From: Candidatus Zambryskiibacteriota bacterium | GTDB taxonomy: Bacteria > Patescibacteriota > Minisyncoccia > Phycocordibacterales > DATDWN01 | DNA length: 64,000 bases | Assembly: GCA_023267045.1 (NCBI GenBank) | Contig: JAHFOB010000002.1 | Coordinates: 2,032 to 66,031, forward strand | Reading direction: 5' to 3' | Part shown: piece by piece, positions 15,593 through 54,344 of the stretch | How the letters are laid out: the number at the start of each line of letters is the position of its first letter | Numbering within the stretch: position 1 is the stretch's first letter | The notes under the pieces: model-generated | What the model was told of the DNA's origin: nothing | The model's input: the letters and a program-made list of their open reading frames with translations, nothing else | Database searches by the model: none | Translations under genes and position numbers: made by a program

Positions 15593-15611
15593 GAAAGTGG
15601 TAATATATAGG

Positions 15612-15720
15612 ATGAATCCCGTTAGAAATATCGGAGATTCAGTGTTACCACGGTCAGGTTAACTTTAATCATTAACATAAGGAGTTATTATTAAATATAT
15701 GATCTCCTATTTCTAACGGG
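15612..15720 (+). repeat. L-element copy 1: ~107-nt terminal-inverted-repeat element abutting the start codon of 15721
   Basis: ATGA|ATCCCGTTAGAAATATCGGAGAT...ATCTCCTATTTCTAACGGG|ATGAAG; -10-like TAATATATAG immediately upstream. Confidence 0.85.
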
Positions 15721-17253
15721 ATGAAGTTCATAGATAATTTTCTAAACGGCATAACCATGTACAAATTGGTTTTGTACGGACTTTTGGTTTTGGCCGTGTT
15801 TTCTATAGCTCTAAGTTTTGCAGGAATTTTATCGTACAGTCCTCAAAGTTTGTCCAGTTCTTTTATTATTTTGTTAATAGTTTGTTACATAACAAACTAT
15901 CTTTTTTCCAAAGTATTTAGAGTTTCTGTAAATAGTGAATCATATTTCATAACCAGTCTGATATTGTTTTTGATATTGTTTCCTGTAGGTAGTTTATCTC
16001 AACTATGGGTTTCTATTATTGTTGCCACTATAGCAATGGCTTCAAAATATCTTTTGGCAATAAATCAAAAGCATATTTTCAATCCTACCGCTATCGCAAT
16101 TTTTATCATTGGTTTTTTCGGTTATGGTTCGGCCATCTGGTGGATTGGTAGTTCCTATATGATTGTGCCAGTTGTCATTCTCGGTTTTCTAGTTATACGC
16201 AAAGTTCGCCGTTTTGCTTTGTTTTCTTCTTTTCTTCTGGCGGGTGTTGCCAGTATTTCTGTCTTTAGTTTATATCACGGTTTCAACCTAGTTGAAGTTT
16301 TGAAACAAACTTTTCTTTCAGGGCCGATACTTTTCTTCGGCAGTATTATGTTGACAGAACCACTAACGACTCCGCCAAGTGTTGGTCTTCAGGTAGCGTA
16401 TGGCGTTTTAGTCGGAATATTTTTTGGTGCAGAGTTTCAATTTGGCCCATTATATTCTTCACCAGCTCTAGCACTACTTATCGGTAATTTGTTTTCATAT
16501 ATTGTTAGTCCAAGAGCTCATTTAACATTGACTCTGCTTCGCAAAAATAAACTATCCCATGACGTCTATGACTTTGAGTGGAAAATATCTGGTCATAAAA
16601 CAGACAGAAAAATTGGCTTTATGGCGGGTCAGTATATGGAATGGACATTAGCTCACAAACATCCAGATATAAGAGGCAATCGGCGATTTTTTACTCTAGC
16701 TTCCTCTCCGACAGAAGAAAACTTACATCTTGGTATAAAGTTCTACAAAGACTCTAGTAGCTTCAAAAAAGCTCTAAATTCCATGGCTTTGGGTAGTAAA
16801 ATCGTGGCATCGCAAATAGCTGGGTCATTTACACTACCAAAAGACTCAAGCAAGAAGATGGTTTTTATTGCTGGTGGTATAGGTATTACACCGTTCAGAA
16901 GTATTATCAAATATCTGCTCGATAAAAAAGAGGATAGGGAGGCTGTACTTTTCTTTTCAAACAAAACAACAGAAGATATAGTTTACAAAGATATTTTTGA
17001 CGAAGCAGAAAATAAACTTGGGATAAAAACTATTTATGTCATAAACGATATGCAAGGCGGTGTTGAAACTTCAAAAATAAAAGCTGGAATTGTTACAAAA
17101 GAAATGATCGTAGCTGAAGCAACGGATTATAAAGATAGAATTTTCTATATTTCTGGTTCGCACGCGATGGTTGAATCTTTCAAAAACGTTTTACACAAAA
17201 TGGGTGTAAAAAGATCCCAAATCAAAACCGATTTTTTTCCGGGCTTTATGTAG
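15721..17253 (+). CDS. membrane oxidoreductase: polytopic N-terminal domain fused to a ferredoxin-NADP-reductase-type FAD/NAD(P)-binding domain
   Basis: C-terminal RRFFTLASSP (RxYS-type FAD motif), GGIGITPF (NAD-binding) and YISGSHAMV. N-terminal ~280 aa has 8-9 TM helices, with HIFNPTAIA reminiscent of NqrB/RnfD. Confidence 0.6.
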   Translation: MKFIDNFLNGITMYKLVLYGLLVLAVFSIALSFAGILSYSPQSLSSSFIILLIVCYITNYLFSKVFRVSVNSESYFITSLILFLILFPVGSLSQLWVSIIVATIAMASKYLLAINQKHIFNPTAIAIFIIGFFGYGSAIWWIGSSYMIVPVVILGFLVIRKVRRFALFSSFLLAGVASISVFSLYHGFNLVEVLKQTFLSGPILFFGSIMLTEPLTTPPSVGLQVAYGVLVGIFFGAEFQFGPLYSSPALALLIGNLFSYIVSPRAHLTLTLLRKNKLSHDVYDFEWKISGHKTDRKIGFMAGQYMEWTLAHKHPDIRGNRRFFTLASSPTEENLHLGIKFYKDSSSFKKALNSMALGSKIVASQIAGSFTLPKDSSKKMVFIAGGIGITPFRSIIKYLLDKKEDREAVLFFSNKTTEDIVYKDIFDEAENKLGIKTIYVINDMQGGVETSKIKAGIVTKEMIVAEATDYKDRIFYISGSHAMVESFKNVLHKMGVKRSQIKTDFFPGFM

Positions 17254-17540: not shown

Positions 17541-20528
17541 ATGAAAAAAATATTTTCTTATTTGACTGTCCTATCAATGGTTATTTCCACTATAGGGGCT
17601 TTTCCGCTAACAGCAAGTGCACATCAGAATAAATTTGACTGGACACCACACTCCGTTTTTCATAATGGTCACGAACACGGAGATCAAGGTGATGATGAAA
17701 AAGGTGATAAAGATGATAATGAAGATCATGATGACCATGAGTCCAAAGGTTCAATCACAGTTTGTAAAATAATAATCAAACCAGATGGTACGACAGTAAC
17801 TGACGGAAGTGAATTATCGTCACCAACAAGTGTTACTGTCCCTGGGGGAACAGTCCCAAACAACTCTCACGGTTATGCTCTCTCTGTAACTACTTTCACT
17901 ACTCCTCTCTCAATGACAGACGGCTTTCTTGATTCCAGTGGGGAGGAAAATGACGCTCAATGTGTCACATATAGCGATTTGAAAATCGGAAGCTACTATT
18001 ACGGACAGGAAACAGCAACTGATCCTTCTCTATGGGATTCTACTATGTACAATGATCAGTTTTCTAACACAGTAAATGATGTTACTGATTTCTATTCATA
18101 TAATACTGACGGTACTCAAAACGGTTACAATTCCGACGGTGTTATTACACTTACAAAAAATAAACCAAATAGAACTCTTATTGTTCTAAACAAACTAAAA
18201 ACCCCACCCACCTCAACTATTGTTGCTACGAAAATCGTCTGTGATAATGAGTCCGACTTGCCAAACTGGGGTTCCGGCGGTCCTGATATAACAGATACAA
18301 CTGCTAGCACTTTCATATCTACCCACCCAAATTGTCATTTAGCATCTGATTGGCAATTCCAGTGGGTTAAGGATTCTGACTCAAATACAAACCCCGGAGA
18401 TAATGTACTGACTCCAGCTAGTTCTCCTTGGACAACAATGCCATCTACAAACGGTTCTGGACAAACTTCAGTCACGGTTCCAGCAGGTTCCAAAATATGG
18501 GTTCGTGAAGTTTTGAAAGACGGTTATGTTCCATTTACTTTCAACACAAATAATCAGACTAACGTAGATAACGTTTCCGCTGAAATTTACTGTAACACCG
18601 ACGTTTTGAATTATGATAACTGGGATTGGATTGATCCAGTCATAGCGGGACAGACTTACCAATGCGTTGCTTTCAACGCTCTAAAACAGGCTCCTCCGAC
18701 TCTAGATATACAAAGCTGTGGTGTTGTACAGTCACCATATCCACCTTCTGGTGAAATGTTATCTCCTACGACATACGACTATTCGGGCCCAAACGACCCA
18801 GGTGATTCTACATCAGGAAATCAAGTTGATCACAAATGGGTTCATGTACACCAAACTCCTGTAGTTTGGGATATGATAACTCCTACAGACACAGCTTATC
18901 TAGTTCCAAGTATTGATCACGATCCTTTCCCAGCCGAATCTCACGAAGCAACACTTTTCGGATCTGACAGTCCAACTGGTCCTTGGGTAGCCGGAATAGA
19001 AACAACAACTTTCCCTCTCGGTCCTACAAGTTGGATTTCTGATAACGACACAACTTCATGGAAATTTGGACAAGCATACAGATATATTTCTGCTACAGCC
19101 GGAGGAACATTGCAAAACGATGGTGATGCAGAGATTGACGCCGTTTGCAGTCCAGAAGTCATTCCTCCACCTATTTGTGACCCAGGGCAAGAGTTAATCC
19201 AGAATGGCTCGTTTGAAACACCAGCAGTTCCTTTGGCAAGTTGGGATATCTTTCCTTCAGGTGCGATTTCGCTTGATTGGGTTGTGTCATGGTTTGGTGG
19301 ATCAACAACCTTTGGTTCTGGAACAAGACCGACTGTTGCAAACCTTGAAATCCAGACTAATGGGCTAAATAGTTCAATTGCTTCAAATGGCACACAGTTT
19401 GCCGAACTTGATACTGATTGGGATGGACCTTCAGGATCACTAAACGGTGAACCAGCTTCTGTGGCAATATCTCAAAATATTACTACTGTTCCTGGAACAG
19501 ATTATAAATTGACTTATGATTTTTCACCTAGACCAAATACTGGTTCTTCAGAAAATAAACTGGAGGTTATTTGGGGTGGAGTACTTGGTGATACGGTTGG
19601 GCCTATAGTCGGAGGGGTTAGTACGATATGGTCATCACATACTCTAAACTTTACTGCAACAAGTACAAACACATTTATTACATTCCGTGATGCTGGGACG
19701 CCAGAGGATTCGCTCGGTACTTTGCTTGATAATGTAAGTCTACGATGTGTACCACCAGAAAATATTCCGGAATGTGATGAAGGTGAGCATCTAAATATAG
19801 ACAACGAATGCATAAGTGATGATGTTCCACCACCTACAGATGTTTGTCCAAATATAGACGGTAACCAGTCAACAGTTCCTGAAGGTAAACATCTAAATAA
19901 TGATGGCCAGTGTGTTCCTAACGGAGATGATAACGATGATGAGGATGAAAATACACCAACTGATGTTTGTCCAAATATAGACGGTAACCAGTCAGAAGTT
20001 CCAAGTGGAAAACATAAAAACGACGACGGTCAGTGCGTAGATAACACAACAACAGAATCTACAAATGACGAAAATAATGGCGGTGGCGGTGGAGGAGGTG
20101 GTGGCGGTAATGGTCCGGGTGGAAACAATGGCCCTATAAACTTCGGATTTGTTAATGGTGGAAATGGCGGTGGAGGCGGTAATGGTGCGCCACAGGGACA
20201 AGTTCTTGGTGCATCTTGCACACCTTATCTTGATTCATACATTGGTTTTGGAAAGAAAAATAATCCAGATCAGGTTAGGAAACTTCAAGAGTTCCTTAAT
20301 GAATATCTAGGTCTTCATATACCAGTTACAGGGTTCTTCGGGCCACTTACATATAACGCCGTAAAACAATTCCAGATACAAGAAAACATAGATATTATTG
20401 GTCCATGGTCAAAACTTGGGTTGCTCAAGGACAAAGAAGCAACCGGATATGTTTACAAGACAACAAAGAGAAAAATAAATCTGATAAAATGTTCTGAACT
20501 AGACATACCAATACCACAGTTACCTTAA
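17541..20528 (+). CDS. large secreted/surface protein (995 aa) with a C-terminal peptidoglycan-binding domain
   Basis: Signal peptide; His/Asp-rich stretch (HEHGDQGDDEKGDKDDNEDHDDHE); triplicated DVCPNIDGNQS.VP.GKH.N.DGQCV modules; poly-Gly tracts; C-terminal VRKLQEFLNEYLG...GFFGPLTYNAVKQFQ matches PG_binding_1. Confidence 0.6.
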   Translation: MKKIFSYLTVLSMVISTIGAFPLTASAHQNKFDWTPHSVFHNGHEHGDQGDDEKGDKDDNEDHDDHESKGSITVCKIIIKPDGTTVTDGSELSSPTSVTVPGGTVPNNSHGYALSVTTFTTPLSMTDGFLDSSGEENDAQCVTYSDLKIGSYYYGQETATDPSLWDSTMYNDQFSNTVNDVTDFYSYNTDGTQNGYNSDGVITLTKNKPNRTLIVLNKLKTPPTSTIVATKIVCDNESDLPNWGSGGPDITDTTASTFISTHPNCHLASDWQFQWVKDSDSNTNPGDNVLTPASSPWTTMPSTNGSGQTSVTVPAGSKIWVREVLKDGYVPFTFNTNNQTNVDNVSAEIYCNTDVLNYDNWDWIDPVIAGQTYQCVAFNALKQAPPTLDIQSCGVVQSPYPPSGEMLSPTTYDYSGPNDPGDSTSGNQVDHKWVHVHQTPVVWDMITPTDTAYLVPSIDHDPFPAESHEATLFGSDSPTGPWVAGIETTTFPLGPTSWISDNDTTSWKFGQAYRYISATAGGTLQNDGDAEIDAVCSPEVIPPPICDPGQELIQNGSFETPAVPLASWDIFPSGAISLDWVVSWFGGSTTFGSGTRPTVANLEIQTNGLNSSIASNGTQFAELDTDWDGPSGSLNGEPASVAISQNITTVPGTDYKLTYDFSPRPNTGSSENKLEVIWGGVLGDTVGPIVGGVSTIWSSHTLNFTATSTNTFITFRDAGTPEDSLGTLLDNVSLRCVPPENIPECDEGEHLNIDNECISDDVPPPTDVCPNIDGNQSTVPEGKHLNNDGQCVPNGDDNDDEDENTPTDVCPNIDGNQSEVPSGKHKNDDGQCVDNTTTESTNDENNGGGGGGGGGGNGPGGNNGPINFGFVNGGNGGGGGNGAPQGQVLGASCTPYLDSYIGFGKKNNPDQVRKLQEFLNEYLGLHIPVTGFFGPLTYNAVKQFQIQENIDIIGPWSKLGLLKDKEATGYVYKTTKRKINLIKCSELDIPIPQLP

Positions 20529-29373: not shown

Positions 29374-30591
29374 ATGGAAAGAAATACATATAGAAGTTCT
29401 GGGCCACGAAAATTTGGTCGACCATCTTTTTCTCATAACAGAGGTGGTTTTCGTGGTGGAAATCGCGGAGGTGGAAGATCTGGAAGCAAGCACATTGATC
29501 CGTCACGATTTATAAATAAAGCTGTTATCACTGAACAAGTTGAACATTTTGTACCAGAACACAAGTTTAGTGATTTTGCTGTGGACACTAGATTGTCAAA
29601 AAATATTATTGCTAAAGGCTATGTAGATCCGACTCCAATTCAAGATAAATCCATTCCACACATTTTGAAAGGAGAAGACGTGGTTGGTATCGCAAATACA
29701 GGCACTGGAAAAACAGCAGCCTTTCTTATTCCTCTTATAAACAAAGTTCTGAGTCATCAAAAAGAAAACGTTTTAATAATAGTTCCGACTCGTGAACTGG
29801 CTTTACAAATCGAAGAAGAATTAAACGGTTTTACTTTGGGTATGAAAATGTACTCCGTTTGTTGCGTTGGAGGTTCGTCTATTGGAAATCAAATCAGAGC
29901 TTTAAGATACAGAAACGAGTTTGTTATCGGTACTCCGGGAAGATTGAAGGATTTGATAGAAAAAAAAGTTTTGAATCTATCTCATTTCAAAACAGTTGTA
30001 CTCGACGAAGCTGACAGAATGCTAGATATGGGATTTATAAATGACATGAAGTTCATGATGGCTCTTATGCCGAAAAATCGTCACACACTTTTCTTTTCAG
30101 CTACACTTTCCCCAGAAATCTCTATACTCATCAAAGATTTTTTGAAAAATCCAGTAATGATTTCTGTTAAAACAGGGGATACGGCAAGAAATGTTGATCA
30201 AGATGTTGTTCGAGTAAACAGAGGAGAAAATAAACTAGATGTTTTACACAGTATGCTTATCAAACCAGATTTCAACAAAGTCTTAATTTTTGGACGGACA
30301 AAACACGGGGTGGAAAAATTGACTAAACTTCTGGTGGCTCGCGGATTTAGAGCAGAATCAATTCACGGAAATAAAAATCAGTCAGGTAGACAGAGATCAC
30401 TAAAACTTTTCAAGGAAGGCAAAGTTCAGGTTTTGGTTGCAACAGATGTTGCCGCGAGGGGACTAGACATCAGCGATGTTTCTCATGTCATCAACTTTGA
30501 TATTCCAGCGACATATGAGGATTATGTGCATAGAATAGGACGAACAGGACGGGCCGGCAAGAAAGGCAAGGCTCTTACCTTTGTTGAATAG
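29374..30591 (+). CDS. DEAD-box ATP-dependent RNA helicase with an N-terminal RGG-rich tail
   Basis: Q-motif, GTGKTAAF (motif I), DEAD (VLDEADRML), SAT, HRIGRTGRAG; N-terminal GGFRGGNRGGGRSG. Confidence 0.9.
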   Translation: MERNTYRSSGPRKFGRPSFSHNRGGFRGGNRGGGRSGSKHIDPSRFINKAVITEQVEHFVPEHKFSDFAVDTRLSKNIIAKGYVDPTPIQDKSIPHILKGEDVVGIANTGTGKTAAFLIPLINKVLSHQKENVLIIVPTRELALQIEEELNGFTLGMKMYSVCCVGGSSIGNQIRALRYRNEFVIGTPGRLKDLIEKKVLNLSHFKTVVLDEADRMLDMGFINDMKFMMALMPKNRHTLFFSATLSPEISILIKDFLKNPVMISVKTGDTARNVDQDVVRVNRGENKLDVLHSMLIKPDFNKVLIFGRTKHGVEKLTKLLVARGFRAESIHGNKNQSGRQRSLKLFKEGKVQVLVATDVAARGLDISDVSHVINFDIPATYEDYVHRIGRTGRAGKKGKALTFVE

Positions 30592-30631
30592 CTCAGGTCT
30601 TTTTACTAAATCTCTAACGTCTAACGTAAAT

Positions 30632-30755
30632 AAAATCTCTTTCTCATCACAACTTTTTCTAGTAACAGAATAATTTCTTGCTAGAAATTTTCTTTCTGCT
30701 CACCTTTTCACAGGTTCCGCAGATACTAGAAAAAGTTGTGATTCGACGAGATTTT
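30632..30755 (+). repeat. R-element copy A: REP-like palindromic element (124 nt) with ~32-bp imperfect terminal inverted repeats
   Basis: AAAATCTC...CACAACTTTTTCTAGTA...core...TACTAGAAAAAGTTGTG...GAGATTTT. Confidence 0.8.
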
Positions 30756-30814
30756 GTTTCTGAGCATTTTCTATAAATAGCAACGATAATATACTTTATG
30801 TTACAATAGCCCTC

Positions 30815-30921
30815 ATGGATCCCGTTAGAAATATCGGAGATCAATGTTACGATTATCAGGTTAATTTTAATTTTATAATAGGTCGTCATAGCAGAATGTA
30901 TGATCTCCTATTTCTAACGGG
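30815..30921 (+). repeat. L-element copy 3 abutting the start codon of dedA (30922)
   Basis: ATGG|ATCCCGTTAGAAATATCGGAGAT...ATCTCCTATTTCTAACGGG|ATGGAT. The duplicated hexamer ATGGAT matches this gene's own start; TACAAT box lies upstream. Confidence 0.85.
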
Positions 30922-31539
30922 ATGGATTATTTGATAAATAGCATAACTATACTTGGATATTTTGGCTATGGGCTTTTATTTATAATCATATTTTTTGAGT
31001 CTTTTCCACTAACATTTTTCTTGCCAGGAGACAGTTTGCTTTTTACATCTGGGTTTCTGGCTTCACAAGGGCACTTCAATCTTGCTCTACTTATCGCCAC
31101 ACTTTTTCTAGCAAGTATCGCCGGCTATCTTTTCAGCTATGCAATGGGGGAGAAACTTCGACAAATTATTTTGAAAAGTAACGACAAGTATTGGTTCAAA
31201 AAAAAGCACTTGGACTACACAGAAAAATTTTATGCAAAGTACGGCACAAAAACAGTAATTATCGGTCGCTTTGTTCCCATAGTCCGTTCTTTTAGTCCGA
31301 CATTGGCTGGAGCTGTAGATATGAACTTCAAAAAATTTCTAAAACTGACTATGCTTGGCGGATTTCTCTGGACGGTAGGAATAACTTCTGCCGGTTTTTA
31401 TTTGGGTAAAGCTATTCCTAGCGCTCATTTATATTTAACACCGATAATTCTCGGTATTATTTTTGTGTCACTTTTGCCAGCAATCATAGAATATATTCGT
31501 GATCAGGTTGCCAAAGGTAAAATAAATCCAAAAGTATAA
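30922..31539 (+). CDS. DedA family membrane protein
   Basis: LPGDSLLF...GRFVPIVRSFSPTLAG, DedA/SNARE-associated pattern. Confidence 0.8.
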   Translation: MDYLINSITILGYFGYGLLFIIIFFESFPLTFFLPGDSLLFTSGFLASQGHFNLALLIATLFLASIAGYLFSYAMGEKLRQIILKSNDKYWFKKKHLDYTEKFYAKYGTKTVIIGRFVPIVRSFSPTLAGAVDMNFKKFLKLTMLGGFLWTVGITSAGFYLGKAIPSAHLYLTPIILGIIFVSLLPAIIEYIRDQVAKGKINPKV

Positions 31540-34158: not shown

Positions 34159-34239
34159 GTCGGCACCTCTAGGCTAAAATTACTCTTATTTATAAAGTTG
34201 TCAATTTACAAATCGTCACAAAAATAATATAATTACGTC

Positions 34240-34346
34240 ATGAGTCCCGTTAGAAATAGCGGAGATCAATATTACCAGAGTCAGATAAGTTTAATAATTA
34301 AATAAGGAGTAATAGTTTTATACTAGATCTCCTATTTCTAAACGGG
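34240..34346 (+). repeat. L-element copy 4 abutting the start codon of the FKBP gene (34347)
   Basis: ATGA|GTCCCGTTAGAAATAGCGGAGAT...AGATCTCCTATTTCTAAACGGG|ATGAAA; TTTACA-17-TATAAT promoter directly upstream. Confidence 0.85.
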
Positions 34347-34802
34347 ATGAAAACATTAGATACAAATGAGTGGATAGCTGTCATAGTTTCTGTTTTTGTT
34401 GTTGGTTTCTTTTTTATATTTGGCCAAAGTCTTATTTCCTTATTTAATAACAGTAATTCAAAAAGTATGGTCACTACTCCACAAGTTATTTCAACAGATA
34501 CGGTTATAGGTGCAGGTCAAACGGCAACAGATGGCGATCGTGTAGTGGTTCATTACACCGGACATTTTGTTGATGGCAAAGTTTTTGATAGTTCTGTCAC
34601 TCGTGGCGAGCCATTTCAATTTGTCTTGGGCAGAGGACAAGTTATAAAAGGTTGGGATGAGGGTATAGTCGGTATGCGAGTTGGTGGCAAAAGAACTCTC
34701 TCAATCCCACCAGAACTTGGCTATGGGGCAAATGACTACGGACCGATTCCTGGCAGATCGACGCTTATCTTTGATGTTGAGTTATTGAAAGTGGAAAAAT
34801 AG
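34347..34802 (+). CDS. FKBP-type peptidyl-prolyl cis-trans isomerase, membrane-anchored
   Basis: N-terminal TM; VVVHYTGHFVDGKVFDSS...FQFVLGRGQVIKGWDEG..GM.VGG.R.L.IPPELGYG is the FKBP domain. Confidence 0.9.
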   Translation: MKTLDTNEWIAVIVSVFVVGFFFIFGQSLISLFNNSNSKSMVTTPQVISTDTVIGAGQTATDGDRVVVHYTGHFVDGKVFDSSVTRGEPFQFVLGRGQVIKGWDEGIVGMRVGGKRTLSIPPELGYGANDYGPIPGRSTLIFDVELLKVEK

Positions 34803-35225: not shown

Positions 35226-36476
35226 ATGAATAAATTTTCTTTTGAAATACATAAAGAATTTACAAATGGTTTGGGGAGAGTTGGTACAATACATACTCCG
35301 CACGGTGACATACTGACACCAGCTTTTGTAGCAGTTGGCACAAAAGGAACGGTCAAAGGCTTAACACCAGAACAAATAAAAAGTACAGGTGTACAAACGA
35401 TTATCGCAAACACATATCATTTGTATCTTGATCCGGGAGCAGAACAGGTCGAAAAAATGGGTGGATTGCACAAAGTCATGGGCTGGAACGGACCACTTTT
35501 AACTGACTCTGGAGGTTTTCAGGTTTTTTCTCTTGGTGTGGCGTATGGAAAAGGCATTAGTAAAGTTTCTCATGGAAAAATCGAAGAGTTGGTATTGTCG
35601 GAGCCAAGCGAAGATGCCGAGCAAAGCGAGGTGCCGAAAATCGCGAAGGTAGACGCAAATGGTGTTATGTTTCGAGCGCACGACAGCGGAGATGCACATT
35701 ATTTTACTCCAGAAAAATCAATCGATATTCAGTACAATCTTGGCGCAGATATTATTTTTGCTTTTGATGAATGCACTGCTCCAAATGAGTCAGATCATTA
35801 TCAAAAAGAAGCACTTGAGCGGACTCACAGATGGGCGAAGAGGTCATTAGAACATCATAAGAAATTACTCTTCCAAAAACAAAACATGTCAAAGATGCCC
35901 TTTGACATCTTTCCCGCGATATTTGGGGTAGTTCAAGGGGGGCGAGACGAAAAGCTAAGAAAGGAAAGTGCGGAATACATCGGCTCACTAGATTTTGATG
36001 GGTTCGGTATTGGTGGATCGTTTGAAAAAGAAGATATGGAAAAAGCAGTCGAGTGGGTCAATGGAATTTTACCAAAAGAAAAACCTAGACACTTGCTAGG
36101 AATCGGTGAGCCAATGGATTTATTTATGGCAGTTGAAAAAGGTTGTGACTTGTTTGACTGTGTTGCGCCGACACGACTTGGTAGAAACGGGGGGGTTTAC
36201 ACAAGTCATGGGAAAATAAATTTATTTAATAAAGAATTTCGGGATGACTTAAAACCACTTGATGAAAATTGTACTTGTTATGCGTGTAAAAACTTTTCTC
36301 GTGCCTACATTGCGCATCTGTTCCACGCAAAAGAAATGCTCGCAGGAACTCTGGCTTCCATTCACAATATTTATTTTATAACACACATGGTTTCCAAAAT
36401 GCGTGAAGAAATGTTAAACGGCGATTTTTTATCTTACAAAAAGGACTTTCTGAGTAAATATTATAGAAATCCCTAG
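35226..36476 (+). CDS. tgt: queuine/guanine tRNA-ribosyltransferase (TGT family)
   Basis: LTDSGGFQV, zinc site CTCYAC...H, with an acidic insert; TGT fold motifs throughout. Confidence 0.85.
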   Translation: MNKFSFEIHKEFTNGLGRVGTIHTPHGDILTPAFVAVGTKGTVKGLTPEQIKSTGVQTIIANTYHLYLDPGAEQVEKMGGLHKVMGWNGPLLTDSGGFQVFSLGVAYGKGISKVSHGKIEELVLSEPSEDAEQSEVPKIAKVDANGVMFRAHDSGDAHYFTPEKSIDIQYNLGADIIFAFDECTAPNESDHYQKEALERTHRWAKRSLEHHKKLLFQKQNMSKMPFDIFPAIFGVVQGGRDEKLRKESAEYIGSLDFDGFGIGGSFEKEDMEKAVEWVNGILPKEKPRHLLGIGEPMDLFMAVEKGCDLFDCVAPTRLGRNGGVYTSHGKINLFNKEFRDDLKPLDENCTCYACKNFSRAYIAHLFHAKEMLAGTLASIHNIYFITHMVSKMREEMLNGDFLSYKKDFLSKYYRNP

Positions 36477-36530: not shown

Positions 36531-36654
36531 AAAATATCTTTCTCGTCACAACTTTTTCTAGTAACAGAATAATTTTCTACTGAAAATTTTCTTTCTGCTC
36601 ACCTTTTCACAGGTTCCGCAGATACTAGAAAAATTTGTGACTCGACGATATTTT
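36531..36654 (+). repeat. R-element copy B, immediately upstream of the uvrB promoter
   Basis: AAAATATC...CACAACTTTTTCTAGTA...TACTAGAAAAATTTGTG...GATATTTT. Arm substitutions relative to copy A are mirrored on both arms. Confidence 0.8.
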
Positions 36655-36675
36655 GTGAGTTTTATAATCAAATTT

Positions 36676-39044: not shown

Positions 39045-41744
39045 ATGAATATGAAAAAAAACGAAGAAAAAATCATAGTTAAGGGCGCTCGAACCCACAA
39101 TCTGAAAAACATCACGGTAGAAATGCCACGTAATAAAATGGTCGTTTTTACAGGACTTTCAGGTTCTGGTAAGTCCTCTCTAGCTTTTGACACTATTTTT
39201 GCTGAAGGCCAACGTAGATACGTTGAGTCATTATCTTCATACGCTAGACAGTTCTTGCGCCAAATGCAAAAACCAGACGTCGATGAGATCGCCGGACTTT
39301 CTCCAGCAATTTCTATTGACCAAAAGTCTCGATCAAATAATCCAAGATCGACGGTTGCAACTATCACCGAGATTTATGACTATCTTCGAATATTATATTC
39401 ACGTATTGGTCATCCACACTGTCTGGTCTGTGGAGATGAAATAACAAAACTTTCAAACGAAGAAATAAAAAACTTCATTTTAGAGAAGATAGAAAATAGA
39501 AGATTAAATTCAAAAGAAGGAATTAAACCAAAAATTCCTCTACCAGTATATGTGGAGATCTTTGCTCCAGTGGTCAAGGGTCGGAAGGGTGAGTATTACC
39601 AGCTTCTTTATGATCTTTTAGGAAAAGGATTTTCACATATTTTGGTTGATGGTGTTCGCAAGTCACTCCGCGAGAGGATCGAACTTTCTAAAACAACTCG
39701 TCACAGTATCGATGTCCTCGTTGACTCGATTTCTCTTTTAGACTTTAATTCTGATCCGAAAAGTGCTGAAGAAAGACTGTCAGAAGATTTGGAAAAAGCT
39801 TTGCACGAATCCGATGGTCAAGTAAAGATTATTTTCCGGGACTTAGCAGAAGAAGGTCGGCAACCGCCGAAGGCGAGCAGTGGTCGTATGACCAACGAAT
39901 TTTTCATGTCCTCAAAACTTTCTTGTCCAAAGGATGGTTATTCCTATCCAGAAGTTGAACCACGACTTTTTTCTTTCAACTCTCCGTACGGTGCCTGTCC
40001 AGAATGTAATGGTTTGGGGACACGGCACTTTTTTGGAAGTGAACCGTGTCCAAAGTGCCACGGTGCCAGACTTCGAGAAGAGGCTCTACATGTGACCCTT
40101 GGAGATTCAACTCCAAGGAGTCATGCCGAAAGTAATTCTGAGGCATCAAAAAGAAAAGGAGAAAATATTGTGGATTTAACAGCTATGTCGATTAAAGACG
40201 TCTACGATTTTTTTCAGAAAGTAAAACTAACCGAGCGTGAGAAAAATATTTCTAAAGTAGTGATGAAAGAAATAGAATCAAGACTAATTTTCATGATAAA
40301 TGTCGGTATTGAATATTTGTCGCTCAATCGTCGAGCTCATACTCTCTCTGGTGGAGAAGCACAGAGAATTCGTCTTGCTTCACAACTTGGTTCAGGTCTT
40401 GTTGGCGCGCTGTATGTTCTAGATGAGCCTACGATCGGACTTCACTCACGCGATAACGACCGTCTGATCAAAACACTTTTAAATCTACGCGATCTAGGAA
40501 ACACCATAATCGTCGTGGAACATGATGAAGATACGATTTTTGCTTCGGATTATTTGGTTGATATTGGTCCAGGTGCTGGTGTTCATGGTGGATACGTTGT
40601 TGTTTCAGGAGATTTGGATGAACTGATCACTGCAAAGAAAAATACATCTGGTTCAGTGACGTTGGACTATTTGCGAGGTGACAAAGTTCTCGAAGTTCCA
40701 CAGGAGAGACGAGAAAGCGAAAAAGGTCAGTTGCAGATTAGGGGCGGAAAAATATTTAATATAAAAAACATGAACGTTGATATTCCACTCGGGCGATTTA
40801 TTGCTGTGACTGGAGTGTCAGGTTCTGGTAAATCATCTTTTGTTTACGAAATTTTGCACAGAAATTTGCAAGCTCGTTTTGAGAGAAAATATCGATCAGC
40901 CGAAATTTATAATTGTAAATCGTTTGCTGGCACAGAATATTTGGGTCGAGCAATACTGATAGATCAGTCACCGATCGGACGAACTCCACGCTCAAATCCA
41001 GCGACATACACGGGCTCATGGACTTTTATTCGAGATTTGTTTGCTGAAACTGTAGAGGCTCGTGCTCGTGGTTGGAAGTCAAACAGATTTTCTTTCAACG
41101 TCAAAGGTGGTCGATGCGAAACCTGCCAAGGAAACGGAATGATCGAAGTTGAAATGCACTTTTTGCCGACTGTTTATGTGCCTTGCGATGTCTGCAAAGG
41201 CAAGCGGTTTATGAAAGAAACCCTCGAAGTTCATTACAAAAAGAAAAATATTTATGATGTTTTGAAAATGACAGTTGAAGAAGCGCTGGCGTTTTTTGAA
41301 GATATTCCTGCTGTATCCGATCGTCTTAAATCCCTAGACGATGTAGGTCTGGGCTATCTCGAACTTGGCCAGTCAGCCACAACTCTTTCTGGTGGAGAAG
41401 CTCAACGTGTTAAAATATCTTCGGAACTATATCGACCACATTTGCAAAAAACTATCTACCTTTTGGACGAGCCGACTATTGGACTTCACTACGAAGACGT
41501 CAAAAAGTTAATCGAGATTTTGCAAAAACTTGTTGATAAAGGTAATACCGTTGTTGTTATTGAACACAACATGGATATTATAAAATCCACTGACTATATT
41601 TTAGACATCGGTCCAGAAGGTGGTGACGGAGGTGGTCAGCTCGTTGCAAAAGGAACGCCAGAAGAGATAGCAAATAATGATCGGTCATATACCGGCAAGT
41701 ATCTAAAGAAGGCACTTAAACAATACAGGGCTTATAGGAAGTAA
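39045..41744 (+). CDS. uvrA: excinuclease ABC subunit A
   Basis: Two ABC modules (GLSGSGKSS / [14 protein letters not shown] signatures) and zinc-finger Cys clusters. The start is at 39045 or 39051 ([20 protein letters not shown]); the track's N-terminal extension from 38925 is unlikely. Confidence 0.9.
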
Positions 41745-41942
41745 AGTTTCTTTTTCCTGATGATTTTTTCTAGTAACAGAATAATTTCTTGTTAGAAATT
41801 TTCTTTCTTCCTTACAGGAACTGTACACCTTTCGCATTCTGATTACAGAACGCTCAAGGTCTTGCGAAGTGATAACATCACTTCTCACTCACTTTCACAG
41901 GTTCCGCAGATACTAGAAAAAATCATAAGTCAACGAAACTTT
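41743..41942 (+). repeat. R-element copy C (200 nt, with an ~85-nt internal insertion), overlapping the uvrA stop codon
   Basis: AAAGTTTC...TGATTTTTTCTAGTA...core+insert...TACTAGAAAAAATCA...GAAACTTT. Both the inner and outer arm differences relative to copies A/B are compensatory. Confidence 0.75.
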
Positions 41943-41973: not shown

Positions 41974-41998
41974 AACGGCGCCGATTTCTCGGCGCCTA
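41974..41998 (-). terminator. Terminator hairpin for 41996..42214
   Basis: GGCGCCGAgaaaTCGGCGCC followed on the minus strand by GTTTTCTTTT. Confidence 0.5.
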
Positions 41999-45276: not shown

Positions 45277-46176
45277 ATGAATATACAAATATTGGCTCAG
45301 AAATTTTACGACTATTCATTGTATATGCGTGGTCGCAGACCAGCAACAATTAGACGATATAGACAGGCAATCAACTTGTACTCCAGACTGGCAGGAGTTT
45401 CAGAAATAGAACAAGTGACGGAAGACAATGTAAGACAATTCTTTTTTAATGGAAGAACTAAACGCAACTGGAAACCAAATTCGTTTATTTGTTTCTATCA
45501 TTCTCTGTTAGTATTTTTCAAATGGTGTCTGAATGAAAAGTATCTGACAAAAAATCCAATTGATGATCTTGAAATACCAAAGGTAGAAAAACGGTTGCCG
45601 GCCTGCCTTACCAAGCAGGATGCTTTCAAACTCATTGAAGTTGTTTATAACTATCCGTACGATTATAAATATTTGCGATACAGAAACCATGCTATATTTT
45701 CAACTTTTATTTTCTCTGGTTTAAGAAAGAAAGAGTTGTTGAAATTAAAATATACTGATATTGACCTGGAGAATCTAAGTATATTTGTTAATCAGGGCAA
45801 GGGTGGTAAAGATCGAATAATACCGATATGTAGCACTTTGGCCCAGAGCTTAAAACGTTACTTGGAGGAACGCAAACGACTCAACAAAACATGTCCAGAA
45901 TTCTTTGCATCTCTGAACCGAAATTGTGGATTTACTGATATGGGGCTCCGGGGGTTAGTCTTTAAGATAAGAAAGGCGTCTGGTATAAAATTCACAATTC
46001 ATAAACTCCGACACACCTTTGCAACATTAATGTTGGAAGGTGGTTGCGATATTTTTAGTTTGTCTAAAATGATGGGTCACAGTGACATCAAGACCACAAC
46101 AATTTATCTCTCAGCCAGTGCTAATCATTTAAGGTCGCAGATGATTAAACACCCGTTGAATGATTTGGTAACCTAG
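45277..46176 (+). CDS. tyrosine-type site-specific recombinase/integrase (int1)
   Basis: C-terminal catalytic region HKLRHTFATLMLEGGCDIFSLSKMMGHSDIKTTTIYL (R...HxxR...Y). Confidence 0.85.
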   Translation: MNIQILAQKFYDYSLYMRGRRPATIRRYRQAINLYSRLAGVSEIEQVTEDNVRQFFFNGRTKRNWKPNSFICFYHSLLVFFKWCLNEKYLTKNPIDDLEIPKVEKRLPACLTKQDAFKLIEVVYNYPYDYKYLRYRNHAIFSTFIFSGLRKKELLKLKYTDIDLENLSIFVNQGKGGKDRIIPICSTLAQSLKRYLEERKRLNKTCPEFFASLNRNCGFTDMGLRGLVFKIRKASGIKFTIHKLRHTFATLMLEGGCDIFSLSKMMGHSDIKTTTIYLSASANHLRSQMIKHPLNDLVT

Positions 46177-46192
46177 CTGTCTACTGTTTCTG

Positions 46193-46265
46193 TGGACCCT
46201 GCCGGATTCGGACCGGCGACCTCCGCATTGCAAATGCGGCGCTCTACCAACTAAGCTAAGGGCCC
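46193..46265 (-). tRNA. tRNA-Ala (anticodon UGC), intact, carried inside the island
   Basis: Reverse complement reads GGGCCCTTAGCTTAGTTGGTAGAGCGCCGCATTTGCAATGCGGAGGTCGCCGGTCCGAATCCGGCAGGGTCCA. G3:U70 acceptor pair; anticodon stem CCGCA/TGCGG with loop TTTGCAA. Confidence 0.85.
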
Positions 46266-46364
46266 TTCTTTCAGGACAAACTATAGCAGAATTACATGAA
46301 TTAAGCAAAATGAAAATTTTTACTTAATGCTTAAATATAATTCTATTTTGATAGTATCACTTAA

Positions 46365-46532
46365 TTAATTTTTGTCTTTATGGATTTTGATATACTTCTC
46401 AGTTTCTTCAAAGAGAATATCAAATGCCTTTTGTACTTTACGTTCCTGTTCTGCTTTTTCTTCCGGTGTCTTTGGCTCGACGTAGGTATACGTGATCTTT
46501 AGTCCGTCTGTTTTTGAGGTTCCTTTTTTCAT
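46365..46532 (-). CDS. small charged protein (55 aa), below the ORF-track cutoff
   Basis: MKKGTSKTDGLKITYTYVEPKTPEEKAEQERKVQKAFDILFEETEKYIKIHKDKN. Confidence 0.3.
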   Translation of the reverse strand: MKKGTSKTDGLKITYTYVEPKTPEEKAEQERKVQKAFDILFEETEKYIKIHKDKN

Positions 46533-46560
46533 AGACTGTTAAAGCTTGTAATGGCACCCA

Positions 46561-46974
46561 TCATGGATACACTGTTTTGTTTGGCCGCTCCAGGAGGTGC
46601 GGATTTTTAGTAATCATCTCGTTATAGATGGCCATATCCCGGTCGCAATTCTGTGCAAAGTGGCGTTGAATCTCTGCGGGTCCCATATCCTCTCCGCTAC
46701 CGGCCCCCGCTCCGTATTGCATGTAGTAGCTCAAAGTAATGATGGCGAGGTCCCAATCGATGCCATTTGCGGCGGGACACTCCGGAACTGTGCTCTCGAG
46801 TGCATACGAGTAGAAATAAACCGGTAGTATCACCCCGCTTGACTCCTCATCCGGGCTTGGTGATTCATTGGCTCGGGAGAGAGTTTCTGGAATAGACCCA
46901 TGTTTGAGAAGCAGGGTGCCAGCAACAAGTGCCACCGCAATAACCGCTATGAGAATGTAGGGGGCTTTGTTCAT
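46561..46974 (-). CDS. secreted hypothetical protein, GC-rich
   Basis: Signal peptide; composition differs from the host genes. Confidence 0.45.
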   Translation of the reverse strand: MNKAPYILIAVIAVALVAGTLLLKHGSIPETLSRANESPSPDEESSGVILPVYFYSYALESTVPECPAANGIDWDLAIITLSYYMQYGAGAGSGEDMGPAEIQRHFAQNCDRDMAIYNEMITKNPHLLERPNKTVYP

Positions 46975-46978
46975 GTTT

Positions 46979-47872
46979 TTATTTTTTGTATGCTGTTTTA
47001 TTATATTTTAATCTTATGGCCTTAAGCATTGATTCTGATTCGCCAATTATTCTTTCTGACGAATGAGTGATGGTACGATAATTCATTCTCTCCATCATTT
47101 CACTGTCTACTCCAATATATGAATCACGTTCAAGTATCCAACCAGCAAGAAGTAATCGATTCTTCGATAACGGCAAAGTCACATCAACATCTTTATATGC
47201 AAATCCCGGGAGACTCCCAAATGCATTTGGACCATATTTTTTAATTGCCTCTGGTCTTAACAAGACAATTGGATCATCAGATGTCACATAGCCTCCACTT
47301 GGGGATTCCCATATAGACCATTTCATATCAAATATTATTTGAGAGAGATGTGGAAGTTGGGCGAGGATACTCAATGCATGTTCTTCTTTGTAGTTCTCTA
47401 AATATTCTTCAATATCGCTCATGTGAATCGCTTTACCACTGCTTGGGGTTGCGGCTGCAATTCGCCTTGCTTCTGGGTTATCTTCGTATCGTTGTCTCCA
47501 TTCCTCCATACTTTTTTTCATGGATAAAACCATGCGATGCATACTCTCCCTATGTGGTCTTGTTCTAAGAAAAAGTGCTGCAATAAATACAGAAACTTTT
47601 GCTCGTTCTTCATCTGTCAGAAACAAATTTTTTGTTATCTTTTTTTCAAATATGGCCGCATAAGTACCCTCGATATTGGCTAATGTATCTTCAACAAATA
47701 AACTCTTATCACCGTTCTTTAATGTGACGGTATAGAAATGGCTTTCTACCAGAATGTTCTCGGGTTTTGTTTTGAAAATATTATCCTTCGTATCAAGCAC
47801 CCAAACGAAACCATCACTGTCAGTGAAATTTTGTAGGTAGCATCTTGGTATTGTGTGGTGACGTTTTTTCAT
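46979..47872 (-). CDS. DUF4238 domain protein
   Basis: N-terminal HHTIPRCYLQNF matches the DUF4238 signature (HxVPqfYLrxF). Confidence 0.55.
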   Translation of the reverse strand: MKKRHHTIPRCYLQNFTDSDGFVWVLDTKDNIFKTKPENILVESHFYTVTLKNGDKSLFVEDTLANIEGTYAAIFEKKITKNLFLTDEERAKVSVFIAALFLRTRPHRESMHRMVLSMKKSMEEWRQRYEDNPEARRIAAATPSSGKAIHMSDIEEYLENYKEEHALSILAQLPHLSQIIFDMKWSIWESPSGGYVTSDDPIVLLRPEAIKKYGPNAFGSLPGFAYKDVDVTLPLSKNRLLLAGWILERDSYIGVDSEMMERMNYRTITHSSERIIGESESMLKAIRLKYNKTAYKK

Positions 47873-47928
47873 ATAATTGAGATCATTTTACACTAAAATA
47901 GACCTCATTTAAGGTTACCAAAATATCA

Positions 47929-47957
47929 TTGACAGTATAGGTAAAAAGGTGTATAAT
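47929..47957 (+). promoter_or_regulatory. Consensus sigma70 promoter for 48036..48887
   Basis: TTGACAgtataggtaaaaaggtgTATAAT (17-bp spacer); SD CAAGGAGTAAGGAAATG further downstream. Confidence 0.6.
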
Positions 47958-48035
47958 TGTCAGCAGAAATTACCGTTCTCGTGAGTTATTCCGAGGACTA
48001 GAATCCCGTAACGATCTTTCACAAGGAGTAAGGAA

Positions 48036-48887
48036 ATGAAGATTCTCGCAGAAGCTGATACGGCACAGGTTCTTACTGGTCTGTTCCATCAGATCGGTGA
48101 CCAGAACTGCTACGTCGTGCAGATGGAACAAAGACGAGACACGTACGATACGTTGCAAAACGTGTCAGGACTCGACCTCGTTCTCAACGTCGCTCCGGAA
48201 GGTACACCCGTCGTCATGCTTGGATGGATGACGCCGAAAATGTATACCGACCTCAAGCCACAGGAGTGGTTCGCAGCGATGGGCTACCCGAACGTGATGT
48301 TCCGTCGCCTACCGGCAACACTGGAAGACGTTGTGAGTGCGCTTGAAGAAGTGAAGATTGGCAGTCGCCAGTCAGATCCTCTTGCAATTGCACTTCTCGG
48401 CGTCGATCAGATGAACTCGACTGTCAGAGTCCTTAACCACGATCTTTTGTCCGCTGAACGAGATTCAGAGCGGATGATTCGATGGGTTGAGCGAGCTCGG
48501 GCAGCATTCGGCGACAAGCCCCAAGCCGAACTGATTTCCTTGGTGAAAGATGCCGGGAAATTGGGAGGTCTTCCTGGTCCACTCACGGGTCAAATGTTCC
48601 CTGATGTCTGCGTGGATGTCGAGGGGACACTTCTGGTCGACGGGCAGATTCGTTCCGAAGTTATCGCTTTGGCACAAGAGAAAGCGAACGGCGGACCGAT
48701 CACTGTTTGGACTGGTGGGAACATCTACGACCTTACCAAGCAACTTCGTGGTTTGGGAGTGACCCACAAGATTACCTCCAAGCACACCATGAAGGATGCG
48801 ACTGTTCGAGTGGTGATCGACGACCAGCCGGAAGAAGCGTTCAAGAGCAACTACGGCGTCGGTTACGAAAAGTACATTCAGATCTAG
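48036..48887 (+). CDS. hypothetical protein, strongly GC-rich, with a possible C-terminal HAD-like phosphatase motif
   Basis: GC visibly ~55%. VCVDVEGTLLVDGQ resembles HAD motif I (DxDGT) and VVIDDQPEE motif IV; the N-terminal 170 aa are unknown. Followed by a bidirectional terminator (AGCCCCA...TGGGGCT, TTTTT). Confidence 0.45.
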   Translation: MKILAEADTAQVLTGLFHQIGDQNCYVVQMEQRRDTYDTLQNVSGLDLVLNVAPEGTPVVMLGWMTPKMYTDLKPQEWFAAMGYPNVMFRRLPATLEDVVSALEEVKIGSRQSDPLAIALLGVDQMNSTVRVLNHDLLSAERDSERMIRWVERARAAFGDKPQAELISLVKDAGKLGGLPGPLTGQMFPDVCVDVEGTLLVDGQIRSEVIALAQEKANGGPITVWTGGNIYDLTKQLRGLGVTHKITSKHTMKDATVRVVIDDQPEEAFKSNYGVGYEKYIQI

Positions 48888-48964
48888 TGTCTGCACTTAG
48901 TAGACACAAAAAGAAAGGAGAAAACACAAAGCCCCAAGCAAACACGCTGGGGCTTTTTCAATTA

Positions 48965-49729
48965 TTATTTAATACCAATTATTAAATCATCTCTTGTGTC
49001 ATCTGGTATTAGAATGTAAACATTTTTAAATCCAGCGACTTTCATTTGTTCAACAAGTTCTTCTTTTGTTATGAGATAACTTTTTCTTACTACCTCTCCT
49101 TCACTCAAATCACTTTCAACTCTCGTGGTCCATGTGTTTATTCTTTTACCCCAGTCAAATGTTGATTTCCAAATAGTGTGATATTGCTCACCATTTCTTT
49201 CTGAATCAAAAGTCCTATCAGAACCTTTGTAACTTGGTACATAATGTTTACCTAATCCTATGACAACGAGTCCATTATCCTTTGTAGCTTCAAAAAAACT
49301 TTTCAAACACATTTGTATTCTTGGAATAATGTTTTCTAATTTCTCCGGAGTTTCTCCACCCATCCAACCGTCCATATATACGAAGGAGTTATCTGCATTT
49401 ACAATCACATCAAATTTTTCAGATATTTTATTACCTAATTCCTGCCAAGAAGAATGATAAGCTGATATTTCCATTCCCTCTGATTTAAATTTCTCCTGTA
49501 ATTCCTTAGCGTATGTTTCGTTTCCATCGGTAACACTTAGATTTGTAAATCCTAACTTATATAAATCGAAGGTAGGAAAACCTGTGCCTCCAGCAGTATC
49601 CAGTATTTTAAGATTTTTATCTTTCAAAACAAAAGCTAGAGCTTTTGAATAATTAGTACGATACTGCTCGTCATGTAAAGCATTTCCTGCAATTTCCCAA
49701 ACTTGTGATTGTGTGAGTTCTTTTTTCAT
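48965..49729 (-). CDS. class I SAM-dependent methyltransferase
   Basis: Motif I ILDTAGGTGFPT, motif II/post-I acidic residue, VIVNADNSFVYM. Confidence 0.8.
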   Translation of the reverse strand: MKKELTQSQVWEIAGNALHDEQYRTNYSKALAFVLKDKNLKILDTAGGTGFPTFDLYKLGFTNLSVTDGNETYAKELQEKFKSEGMEISAYHSSWQELGNKISEKFDVIVNADNSFVYMDGWMGGETPEKLENIIPRIQMCLKSFFEATKDNGLVVIGLGKHYVPSYKGSDRTFDSERNGEQYHTIWKSTFDWGKRINTWTTRVESDLSEGEVVRKSYLITKEELVEQMKVAGFKNVYILIPDDTRDDLIIGIK

Positions 49730-49732
49730 AAT

Positions 49733-50263
49733 TTAATTGTTTTTAATAAATGGCTCTACATTCTTTATGATTTCTTGAATGTCATTATATTTGTGGTCTT
49801 CACCTGGTAATTCTAACAAATTATAATTTTTAACACCTGATTTATTTAACACTTCCCTTAAAACAGTAGAAGATGTTGTTCTATCATTTGTTTGTTGAAT
49901 AAAGAGACTCGGAATAGCAAAGTTATTTAATAACTCATCCATGTCCCACCCATTTTCCTTACTCCATTCATAAGCTGTGCCGGCAAAAATACATTTGATT
50001 GGTTTTATATACCCATTGCGTATAGCTTGAAGCGTAAGTGCGACTCCTACAGATTTGGCAAAAATTACAAGATCATTTTTTCCTTCCGCTAATTTTTTTA
50101 AGTTTTCTACTTCTGACCTAATATCAACATCTTCTTTATAATCTTTCCAATTTTCATAATAAAGAATCTCTACTGAATTGAACAAACCTCCGAATGTTTT
50201 TCGGATATTTTCTACCCATTCTTTATTATAATCACTGTAGCCCCCAAGGATAATAAGATTCAT
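49733..50263 (-). CDS. small alpha/beta-fold serine hydrolase-like protein (YdeN/RBBP9-like size)
   Basis: 176 aa; LVIFAKSVGVAL contains a G/A-x-S-x-G nucleophile elbow. It sits 4 nt from each neighbour in the operon. Confidence 0.4.
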   Translation of the reverse strand: MNLIILGGYSDYNKEWVENIRKTFGGLFNSVEILYYENWKDYKEDVDIRSEVENLKKLAEGKNDLVIFAKSVGVALTLQAIRNGYIKPIKCIFAGTAYEWSKENGWDMDELLNNFAIPSLFIQQTNDRTTSSTVLREVLNKSGVKNYNLLELPGEDHKYNDIQEIIKNVEPFIKNN

Positions 50264-50267
50264 GTAT

Positions 50268-52103: not shown

Positions 52104-52107
52104 ATAT

Positions 52108-54252: not shown

Positions 54253-54344
54253 AATTAAGCAAATTTTAACACATTTTCAACCTTTTTGTCCCAACAAAAA
54301 ATGGCGGTAACCCATGACGGGACCGCCGTTTAATGTTATCTCCT

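Follow-up and report, generated by a model that had tools for sequence, protein, structure and literature searches.

Small palindromic repeats scattered between genes are known from several bacterial lineages, and repetitive extragenic palindromic (REP) sequences stabilise the mRNA upstream of them. The reported effects of enterobacterial repetitive intergenic consensus (ERIC) elements on mRNA go through an RNA hairpin, Rickettsia palindromic elements (RPEs) are found inserted in frame with the extra peptide being tolerated, and a Correia copy upstream of gonococcal uvrB can supply the promoter of this gene (PMC10969869). Here we analysed a stretch of 64,000 nucleotides (hereafter the window) from a Candidatus Zambryskiibacteriota bacterium (contig JAHFOB010000002.1), a member of the Candidate Phyla Radiation (CPR), in which a palindromic element occurs three times in the neighbourhood of uvrB and uvrA. 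[quoted passage not shown]

Among the described systems the element resembles ERIC elements and RPEs most and is homologous to neither. Like ERIC elements, which are about 127 bp in length, it is an imperfect palindrome (124 nt in its short form) that is intergenic, often at the 3' ends of genes and in either orientation, the ERIC sites being transcribed and those of the element probably so. Low to moderate copy number, the lack of a known transposase and the existence of longer variants by insertion at a fixed internal site (~70 bp in ERIC, 76 nt in the element) are also shared. However, there is no sequence similarity between the two, the element belongs to CPR bacteria and not to Gammaproteobacteria, and it has a three-way-junction core as well as an in-frame coding copy that is conserved across species. 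RPEs are likewise palindromic repeats (100-150 bp) of a reduced, host-dependent genome, and they too are both intergenic and inserted in frame in a conserved housekeeping gene with the reading frame kept. RPEs are found in many genes, whereas the element is found in one (uppP) and its peptide in no unrelated protein; moreover, the lineages are unrelated and no sequence relationship is known.

The earlier note on this DNA had likened the element to REP or Correia elements. This comparison holds for a dispersed palindromic repeat but fails for a strict REP. Extragenic palindromes at gene 3' ends and one tail-to-tail doublet (L004a/L004b) recall REPs, their bacterial interspersed mosaic elements (BIMEs) and the REPIN-RAYT system of REP doublets with a REP-associated tyrosine transposase. 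A REP unit, however, measures ~20-40 nt, whereas the element measures 124, ~180 or ~200 nt, three to five times longer, and has a branched core; its ends read AAAATCTCTTWCTC ... TCRACGAGATTTT with no GTAG head, and a RAYT was not found in the window. Correia elements (CREE/NEMIS) and MITEs in general share with it terminal inverted repeats that are conserved and can form a hairpin in RNA, placement next to genes, and presence/absence differences between related genomes, here seen at a helicase/dsbA junction, at the three window sites and in uppP. The element differs from these in that its internal structure is conserved and covaries, beyond the ends alone; moreover, neither a clear TA or other target-site duplication nor a parent insertion sequence was identified in the loci searched.

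The three copies, all on the plus strand as the earlier note had reported, were confirmed by reading the window directly and by a repeat finder:

30632-30755, plus strand: copy A, short form, 124 nt; scores 160 bits with the covariance model
36531-36654, plus strand: copy B, short form, 124 nt; scores 151.8 bits with the covariance model
41743-41942, plus strand: copy C, long form, 200 nt; scores 101.3 bits with the covariance model
41812-41887 (approximate), plus strand: extra 76-nt module of copy C, within hairpin 2, with three further small hairpins

Two invariant blocks, a 29-mer (TTTCACAGGTTCCGCAGATACTAGAAAAA) and a 23-mer (TTTTTCTAGTAACAGAATAATTT), are found in the window exactly three times apiece, and neither turned up in any of 100 shuffles. 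Copy A lies 41 nt past the stop codon of a DEAD-box helicase gene (29374-30591) and 167 nt ahead of dedA/VTT (30922), as assigned with Pfam. Copy B lies 55 nt past the stop codon of the gene for tRNA-guanine transglycosylase (TGT; 35226-36476) and 21 nt ahead of the uvrB ATG (36676). Copy C starts within the uvrA stop codon (TAA, 41742-41744), an overlap that had been seen correctly, and a canonical terminator for the converging minus strand lies 3' of it at 41977-41996. Two measurements needed correction: the distance from the end of copy B to the TATAAT box (36663-36668) is 8 nt and not 6 nt, and the extra segment of copy C, given as ~85 nt, is 76 nt long.

The imperfect terminal inverted repeats (5' AAAATCTCTTWCTC, 3' TCRACGAGATTTT) pair as a bulged stem of ~30 bp with one conserved asymmetric internal loop, and this stem closes a three-way junction with two hairpins, the second of which is a site of modular expansion that gives rise to the ~180- and ~200-nt forms. 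In copy A the parts are as follows:

30631-30639, plus strand: outer stem, 5' half (AAAATCTC); pairs with 30748-30756
30640-30645, plus strand: conserved 5' internal-loop motif TTTCTC
30646-30664, plus strand: inner stem, 5' arm, 19 bp; pairs with 30724-30742 (alignment columns 21-39 with 99-117)
30667-30693, plus strand: hairpin 1 (AGAA-U-AAUUUCU / AGAAAUU-UUCU; alignment columns 42-68)
30695-30723, plus strand: hairpin 2 (UCUGC-UC-ACCU UUUCAC AGGU-UCC-GCAGA), the site of the extra module in long forms
30724-30756, plus strand: 3' arm, comprising the inner stem, the conserved 3' internal-loop motif TTCGAC and the outer stem (GAGATTTT)

Single-strand folding energies are -51 (A), -41.9 (B) and -59.2 kcal/mol (C), with z-scores against dinucleotide shuffles of -10.5, -8.6 and -7.2, respectively. 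The paired differences between arms that the earlier note had described are real: the outer arms read AAAATCTC/GAGATTTT in copy A, AAAATATC/GATATTTT in copy B and AAAGTTTC/GAAACTTT in copy C. A further case had been missed in hairpin 1, where the arms read AATTTCT/AGAAATT in copy A and AATTTTC/GAAAATT in copy B. Between these two copies, eight of the ten substitutions form four compensatory pairs, two of them in hairpin 1.

Exact-pattern scans of species-representative genomes (5 loci) and of JGI metagenomes (16 loci) returned 21 loci. Two of the 16 metagenome loci (L016 and L021) were set aside as chance 19-mer matches in unrelated coding sequence, and the remaining 5 genome and 14 metagenome loci collapse to ten further distinct copies. 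A covariance model (R1) then recovered divergent and long copies. The earlier note had anticipated both additional copies and covariation that persists when they are aligned, and both were found: the collection scans and the covariance model together give about 20 independent copies, all of them in Parcubacteria/Zambryskibacteria-like (CPR) contigs of 37-42% G+C (the window has 37.6%). Named carriers are Candidatus Zambryskibacteria RIFCSPLOWO2_02_FULL_39_26, Parcubacteria SF2_12 and one contig of a metagenome-assembled genome labelled as Nitrospira. An 8-kb stretch of the latter (L005; JBEBJM010000001.1, Nitrospira sp. SF2_9) carries the element between groES and groEL; considering its 38% G+C, its groES-groEL context and its origin in the same sample series as Parcubacteria SF2_12, the label is probably a binning error. 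The UvrB protein of the window is at most 85% identical to any other database protein, with Parcubacteria, Minisyncoccia and Zambryskibacteria as the best named matches. The element was absent from viral contigs in three scans with different conserved blocks, gave no blastn match in phage and plasmid collections, and copy A had no match in 5,426 complete E. coli genomes (blastn, word size 11). Rfam returned nothing at the elements at the gathering threshold and only noise at E <= 10 (snoRNA and lncRNA models, 10-20 bits), and ARAGORN found no tRNA-like gene there.

Covariation supports a selected fold. When 12 distinct short copies, taken from several genomes, are aligned without gaps (A2), 93% of cells pair, compared with 85% in shuffles and 39-50% when the partners are slid by 1-3 columns. 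Changes on both sides were found at 19 pairs, a result that none of 500 shuffles reached. Outer-stem pairs covary strongly (columns 6-14 with 123-131), and the outermost pairs have no fixed sequence, yet remain complementary. In hairpin 1 the AUAA bulge region is conserved, whereas the tip pairs covary among copies (T-A, C-G, G-C) and the base also covaries in divergent copies. Variation per column is ~13% in the arms and ~1% in the core, counted at core positions outside the search key; at these 35 positions only 6 differences were counted, where the rate seen in the arms would give ~55.

Of the 24 copies listed, which fall into three structural subfamilies, nearly all have terminal inverted repeats that can be recognised despite substitutions; L027h is a clear exception. 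Together with the AUAA bulge of hairpin 1, these repeats are the parts most common across subfamilies. Beyond the regular short copies the following forms were found:

Long form A (copy C of the window, wC, with L003b, L024x and L027h): 76-nt module in hairpin 2
Long form B (L004b and L029r): a different module in the same place
Diverged short copies: L003c and L025h

The 76-nt modules of L003b, L024x and L027h are ~90% identical to that of copy C and show compensatory changes in its three hairpins.

The distribution of copies among genes and genomes is what would be expected of a repeat that moves, and we consider it very probable that this is a mobile palindromic repeat family. Sites A, B and C are empty in the syntenic relatives L022, L023 and L024, in which the order DEAD helicase, exonuclease VII, FKBP, TGT, uvrB, uvrA, uvrC is shared (dedA also in L022), and the TGT-uvrB spacer, which holds copy B in the window, is only 12 nt long in L024. 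A convergent helicase/dsbA junction provides a second comparison: without the element the two genes overlap by 12 nt (L026, L029) or are separated by an 18-nt gap (L003), whereas the junction is filled by a short antisense copy in L025 and by a long sense copy, followed by a canonical bidirectional terminator, in L027. Identity between copies within a genome is 82-92% and between genomes up to 95%, with no clustering by genome. The spacers of the nearest relatives (UvrB 80-85% identical) could not be aligned with the window sites.

Genes that precede copies include those for the DEAD-box helicase, TGT, uvrA, rpoD, nusA, groES, a UvrD-like helicase, dsbA and an ABC ATPase, among others, so the association with uvrA and uvrB is incidental. 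Most copies begin a few to ~55 nt past a stop codon. The 3'-untranslated or inter-operon placement proposed by the earlier note therefore applies to most copies but not to one, which lies in frame inside uppP. With orientation taken against the gene that ends just upstream of a copy or, for uppP, encloses it, 16 events are in sense and 4 in antisense orientation (our own tally of 20 events including uppP; two-sided binomial p ~0.012). The tail-to-tail pair L004a/L004b lies between nusA and infB.

The flanks of the copies are complementary and not direct repeats, and no common TA or other duplication was seen; the sole hint of target duplication is L025h, where the 12-nt gene-overlap segment CTNCTNAAGTAA stands on both sides of the element. 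A Pfam scan of ~60 open reading frames (ORFs) of the window, itself a genome fragment, revealed no Y1, RAYT or other transposase, and the only recombinases were two tyrosine recombinases (45277-46173 and 56741-57745). Hidden Markov model and covariance-model searches of the fetched loci detected no split copy enclosing an ORF.

Other sequences occupy the same spacers in some relatives. In L022 (4038-4331, 9527-10001 and 12061-12962) the spacers that correspond to the window sites of the element are filled by unrelated G+C-rich segments of 290-900 nt, and so are their counterparts in L023 (Parcubacteria bacterium C7867-006); these segments contain hairpins as well as possible small ORFs, suggesting that these intergenic hot spots received other insertions. 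The rpoD-helicase spacer contains a long element in L003 and L029; in L025 (5610-6190) it consists instead of ~580 nt in which there are several canonical terminators and two small ORFs, both only possible, that are Cys-rich and zinc-ribbon-like.

The copy inside uppP shows that the fold can be maintained in a fixed place. In L003 (2172-2302) the element lies within a 300-aa uppP/bacA ORF and leaves the frame open. Alignment to E. coli UppP (5oon) covers query residues 10-75 and 126-300 and is broken exactly at the element, with 50 query residues (76-125) against 20 chain residues (83-102). The frame used is the one in which the consensus has TAGTAA, in the inner stem, as its only stops; the uppP copy has GGAGCA in their place and the opposite arm is altered to match. 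The insert is common to five UppP homologues from five species (62-79% identical). A homologue of 264 aa with 79% identity (alignment A6) lacks it, as do nearly all other listed homologues, most of which are also ~264 aa in length. This pattern suggests a single ancient insertion, passed on to at least five species. The 45-aa peptide gave one chance match, to a repetitive protein, in a phmmer search of 1.84 billion representatives, and a word-index protein search with the in-frame peptide gave no candidates; with no other protein family carrying it, the in-frame insertion is documented only once.

Among the five orthologous in-frame copies (alignment A7) 96.2% of cells are paired, a result reached by 0 of 500 shuffles, and 15 of 47 pairs show compensatory double changes compared with 0-1 when partners are slid. 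For example, ATC is replaced by GTT or GTC (Ile to Val) with a synonymous change of GAT to GAC in the other arm, and where Arg becomes His in one arm (CGC to CAT), Cys becomes Tyr in the other (TGC to TAT). Nucleotide identity is 81% within the element and 69% in the remaining gene, and third-codon identity is 72% versus 45%, whereas amino-acid identity is similar (69% within and 70% outside). The unpaired junction letters are conserved as well, including at synonymous positions, and GGAGCACGCATAAAT is invariant in four of the five species. Correction by template switching can keep arms paired, but it does not account for the conservation of unpaired and synonymous positions, and these observations therefore argue that the nucleic acid itself has long been under purifying selection at one fixed site. 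We regard selection on the fold in situ as highly likely. The proposal of the earlier note that the arms covary through selection for pairing is thus supported, also among orthologous copies that derive from one insertion.

Whether the selected molecule is RNA or DNA is a separate question, and here the balance is less decisive, with RNA the somewhat better supported of the two. Selection at the transcript level is favored by the sense bias, by the excess of G-U over A-C among sense-strand transition mismatches (20 vs 11) and by the position of almost every copy inside a transcription unit. On this reading the element would form a 3'-terminal or intercistronic RNA hairpin in the transcript, where it could block 3' exonucleases and protect the upstream mRNA, and/or be cut by RNase III; in this way it would control transcript stability and the segmental expression of the genes on either side. 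The analogy is drawn from the effects on mRNA that have been shown for REP, ERIC and Correia elements, with RNase III or RNase E effects for the latter two (PMC10969869). A specific role as stabiliser or processing site is a tentative suggestion.

Several points weigh against this account. No transposase, parent element or clear target-site duplication was found, and since the searches covered genome fragments the counts are not per-genome copy numbers. The near-invariance of the 59-nt core among short copies is partly a matter of ascertainment, because these copies were fished with an exact core 19-mer, and the divergent copies differ in hairpin 2. The excess of G-U over A-C is not significant (p ~0.15) and four copies are antisense to the neighbouring gene, which together leave room for a constraint at the DNA level; a role in the RNA is what we infer as most likely. 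A simple terminator role fits poorly too, as is taken up below.

Of the rival explanations, the one that survives best is that the element is not merely selfish DNA but a mobile, domesticated, sequence-specific structured-RNA module, with a junction and loops (the AUAA bulge and the CUUWCUC and UCRACGAG internal loop) to which a protein or RNA peculiar to CPR bacteria would bind. It may be a small RNA released by RNase III, a scaffold for protein binding, or a fold that acts as a catalyst or binds a ligand; in one variant the long stem may be a processing signal that frees a small RNA, mobility being a mere route of distribution. The retention of unpaired junction nucleotides at synonymous uppP positions, the difference in third-codon identity and the contrast between core and arms are all in keeping with such recognition, as are the 16:4 sense bias and the covarying multi-hairpin long forms that are conserved across genomes. 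If true, the module would be worth enough to its host to keep synonymous sites in an essential gene among UppP proteins only 62-79% identical. However, there is no Rfam match even at E <= 10, no conserved promoter or dedicated terminator, and no co-occurring partner gene in the loci examined. The neighbouring genes have no function in common, four copies run antisense, and hairpin 2 is wholly replaced in some subfamilies. We consider this explanation unlikely, although it is the best of the alternatives.

A slightly weaker candidate, and an improbable one in our view, is an element that acts as DNA, with a single-stranded hairpin or cruciform recognised, for example, by a Y1/HUH or other transposase as in REP-RAYT and IS200/IS605 systems. 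In this case the paired changes may reflect the needs of recognition or template-switch correction between the arms of a quasi-palindrome. Copies stand in both orientations relative to genes, G-U and A-C mismatches are about equal on the plus strand of the element (10 and 12), the stem reaches into variable yet complementary flanks (columns 4-7 with 130-133), and no part is conserved more widely across subfamilies than the terminal inverted repeats; co-orientation of genes with replication could explain the sense bias just as well. As argued for uppP, however, template switching would not conserve synonymous and unpaired positions across species. Additionally, neither an HUH protein nor a RAYT is present among the ~60 ORFs of the window (a genome fragment), and there is neither a GTAG-type head nor a conserved flanking target tetranucleotide. 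Our preference stays with a mobile repeat whose fold is selected, probably in the RNA.

A third explanation holds that the copies are unusually long bidirectional intrinsic terminators which are alike through copying along with genes. Nearly all intergenic copies lie just past a stop codon, and an A tract (AAAAT) before the stem and a U tract (ATTTT) after it mean that either strand gives a hairpin plus a U run; moreover, where genes converge, a canonical terminator is present for the opposite gene but not for the one upstream of the element. This is nevertheless very doubtful: the element is not a compact G+C-rich hairpin directly before a U tract, the base of its stem is weak and A/U-rich (3 bp, then an internal loop) around an interior of 59-135 nt, the U4 run is itself paired, and the terminator scan did not flag the elements. 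The L005 copy between groES and groEL, the canonical terminator right after the L027 copy and the uppP copies, which keep the fold with no U tract inside an essential gene, fit no better, and the conserved core and loops would be left unexplained.

Other identities were considered and rejected. The strands of the junction (AC, U and nothing) leave no CUGANGA/GAAA core for a hammerhead ribozyme, and no resemblance was seen to the twister, pistol, hatchet or hairpin ribozyme consensus, in agreement with the lack of an Rfam match. A riboswitch was rejected because the copies sit 3' of functionally unrelated genes. Resemblances to attC, parS, integration host factor (IHF) sites and anti-Shine-Dalgarno sequences were dropped, since the letters that match vary between copies. 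In attC the R''/R' core sites (RYYYAAC ... GTTRRRY) are outermost and the centre is variable, whereas in the element the centre is conserved and the outermost pairs vary; CACAAC...GTTGTG occurs only in copy A, the others having CATAAT and similar, and the neighbours are housekeeping genes and not cassettes.

The window contains further features of note. A second, unrelated repeat family of ~105 nt has three plus-strand copies, each of which ends exactly at a downstream ATG:

15608-15723, plus strand: ends at the ATG of an NQR/RnfD-like oxidoreductase gene (15721)
30812-30924, plus strand: ends at the ATG of dedA/VTT (30922)
34237-34349, plus strand: ends at the ATG of the FKBP gene (34347)

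These copies form a 21-23 bp stem (CCCGUUAGAAAUAUCGGAGAUCA ... UGAUCUCCUAUUUCUAACGGG) with a ~55-nt loop that includes AAGGAG, and as RNA they fold with z-scores of -4 to -5.9; Rfam gave no match, and the 29 fetched loci contain no copy. The family could be a 5'-leader/translational control module or another mobile repeat. A full-length LOOT RNA (RF03000) lies at 58225-58339 on the plus strand and scores 80.7 bits, the gathering score being 46.4; shortly downstream of it come an ORF of 95 aa (58374-58661) and a gene for an S49 peptidase. As for the two recombinases, that at 45277-46173 is XerC/D-like and abuts a tRNA-Ala gene (46192-46265, minus strand), and that at 56741-57745 is a second, phage-type integrase. 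Between them lie genes for a DUF4238 protein, a methyltransferase, an asparagine synthase, an enzyme similar to pyruvate phosphate dikinase (PPDK) and a weak ArdC-N-like ORF, and the region ~45277-57745 is a probable integrated island. Finally, direct repeats are found at 19831-20185 within the gene for a 995-aa secreted/cell-wall protein (17541-20528; DUF642 and peptidoglycan-binding domains), with a 123-nt period (78% identity) and Gly-rich GGT/GGC runs.

The genomes of CPR bacteria are very small, and few repeats are usually expected in them. In full-text literature searches no dispersed family of palindromic repeats or MITEs was found described for CPR/Patescibacteria, and as far as these searches show, the repeats described here would be the first palindromic, MITE-like family found for CPR bacteria. 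The comparison of sites suggests that palindromic repeats move in CPR genomes, that they can split tightly packed or overlapping genes, and that an insertion can lengthen an essential membrane enzyme (UppP) by about 36 residues. The covariance model offers a marker for the carrier clade, and its list of sites could be used for metatranscriptome tests of how 3' ends form and mRNAs are processed in organisms that cannot yet be grown alone. Retention through selection on the fold has been a long-standing question for RPE and ERIC elements, and the orthologous in-frame copies of uppP appear to be an unusually clear case of a repeat that is kept by selection on the fold of the nucleic acid, and not only by recent copying.

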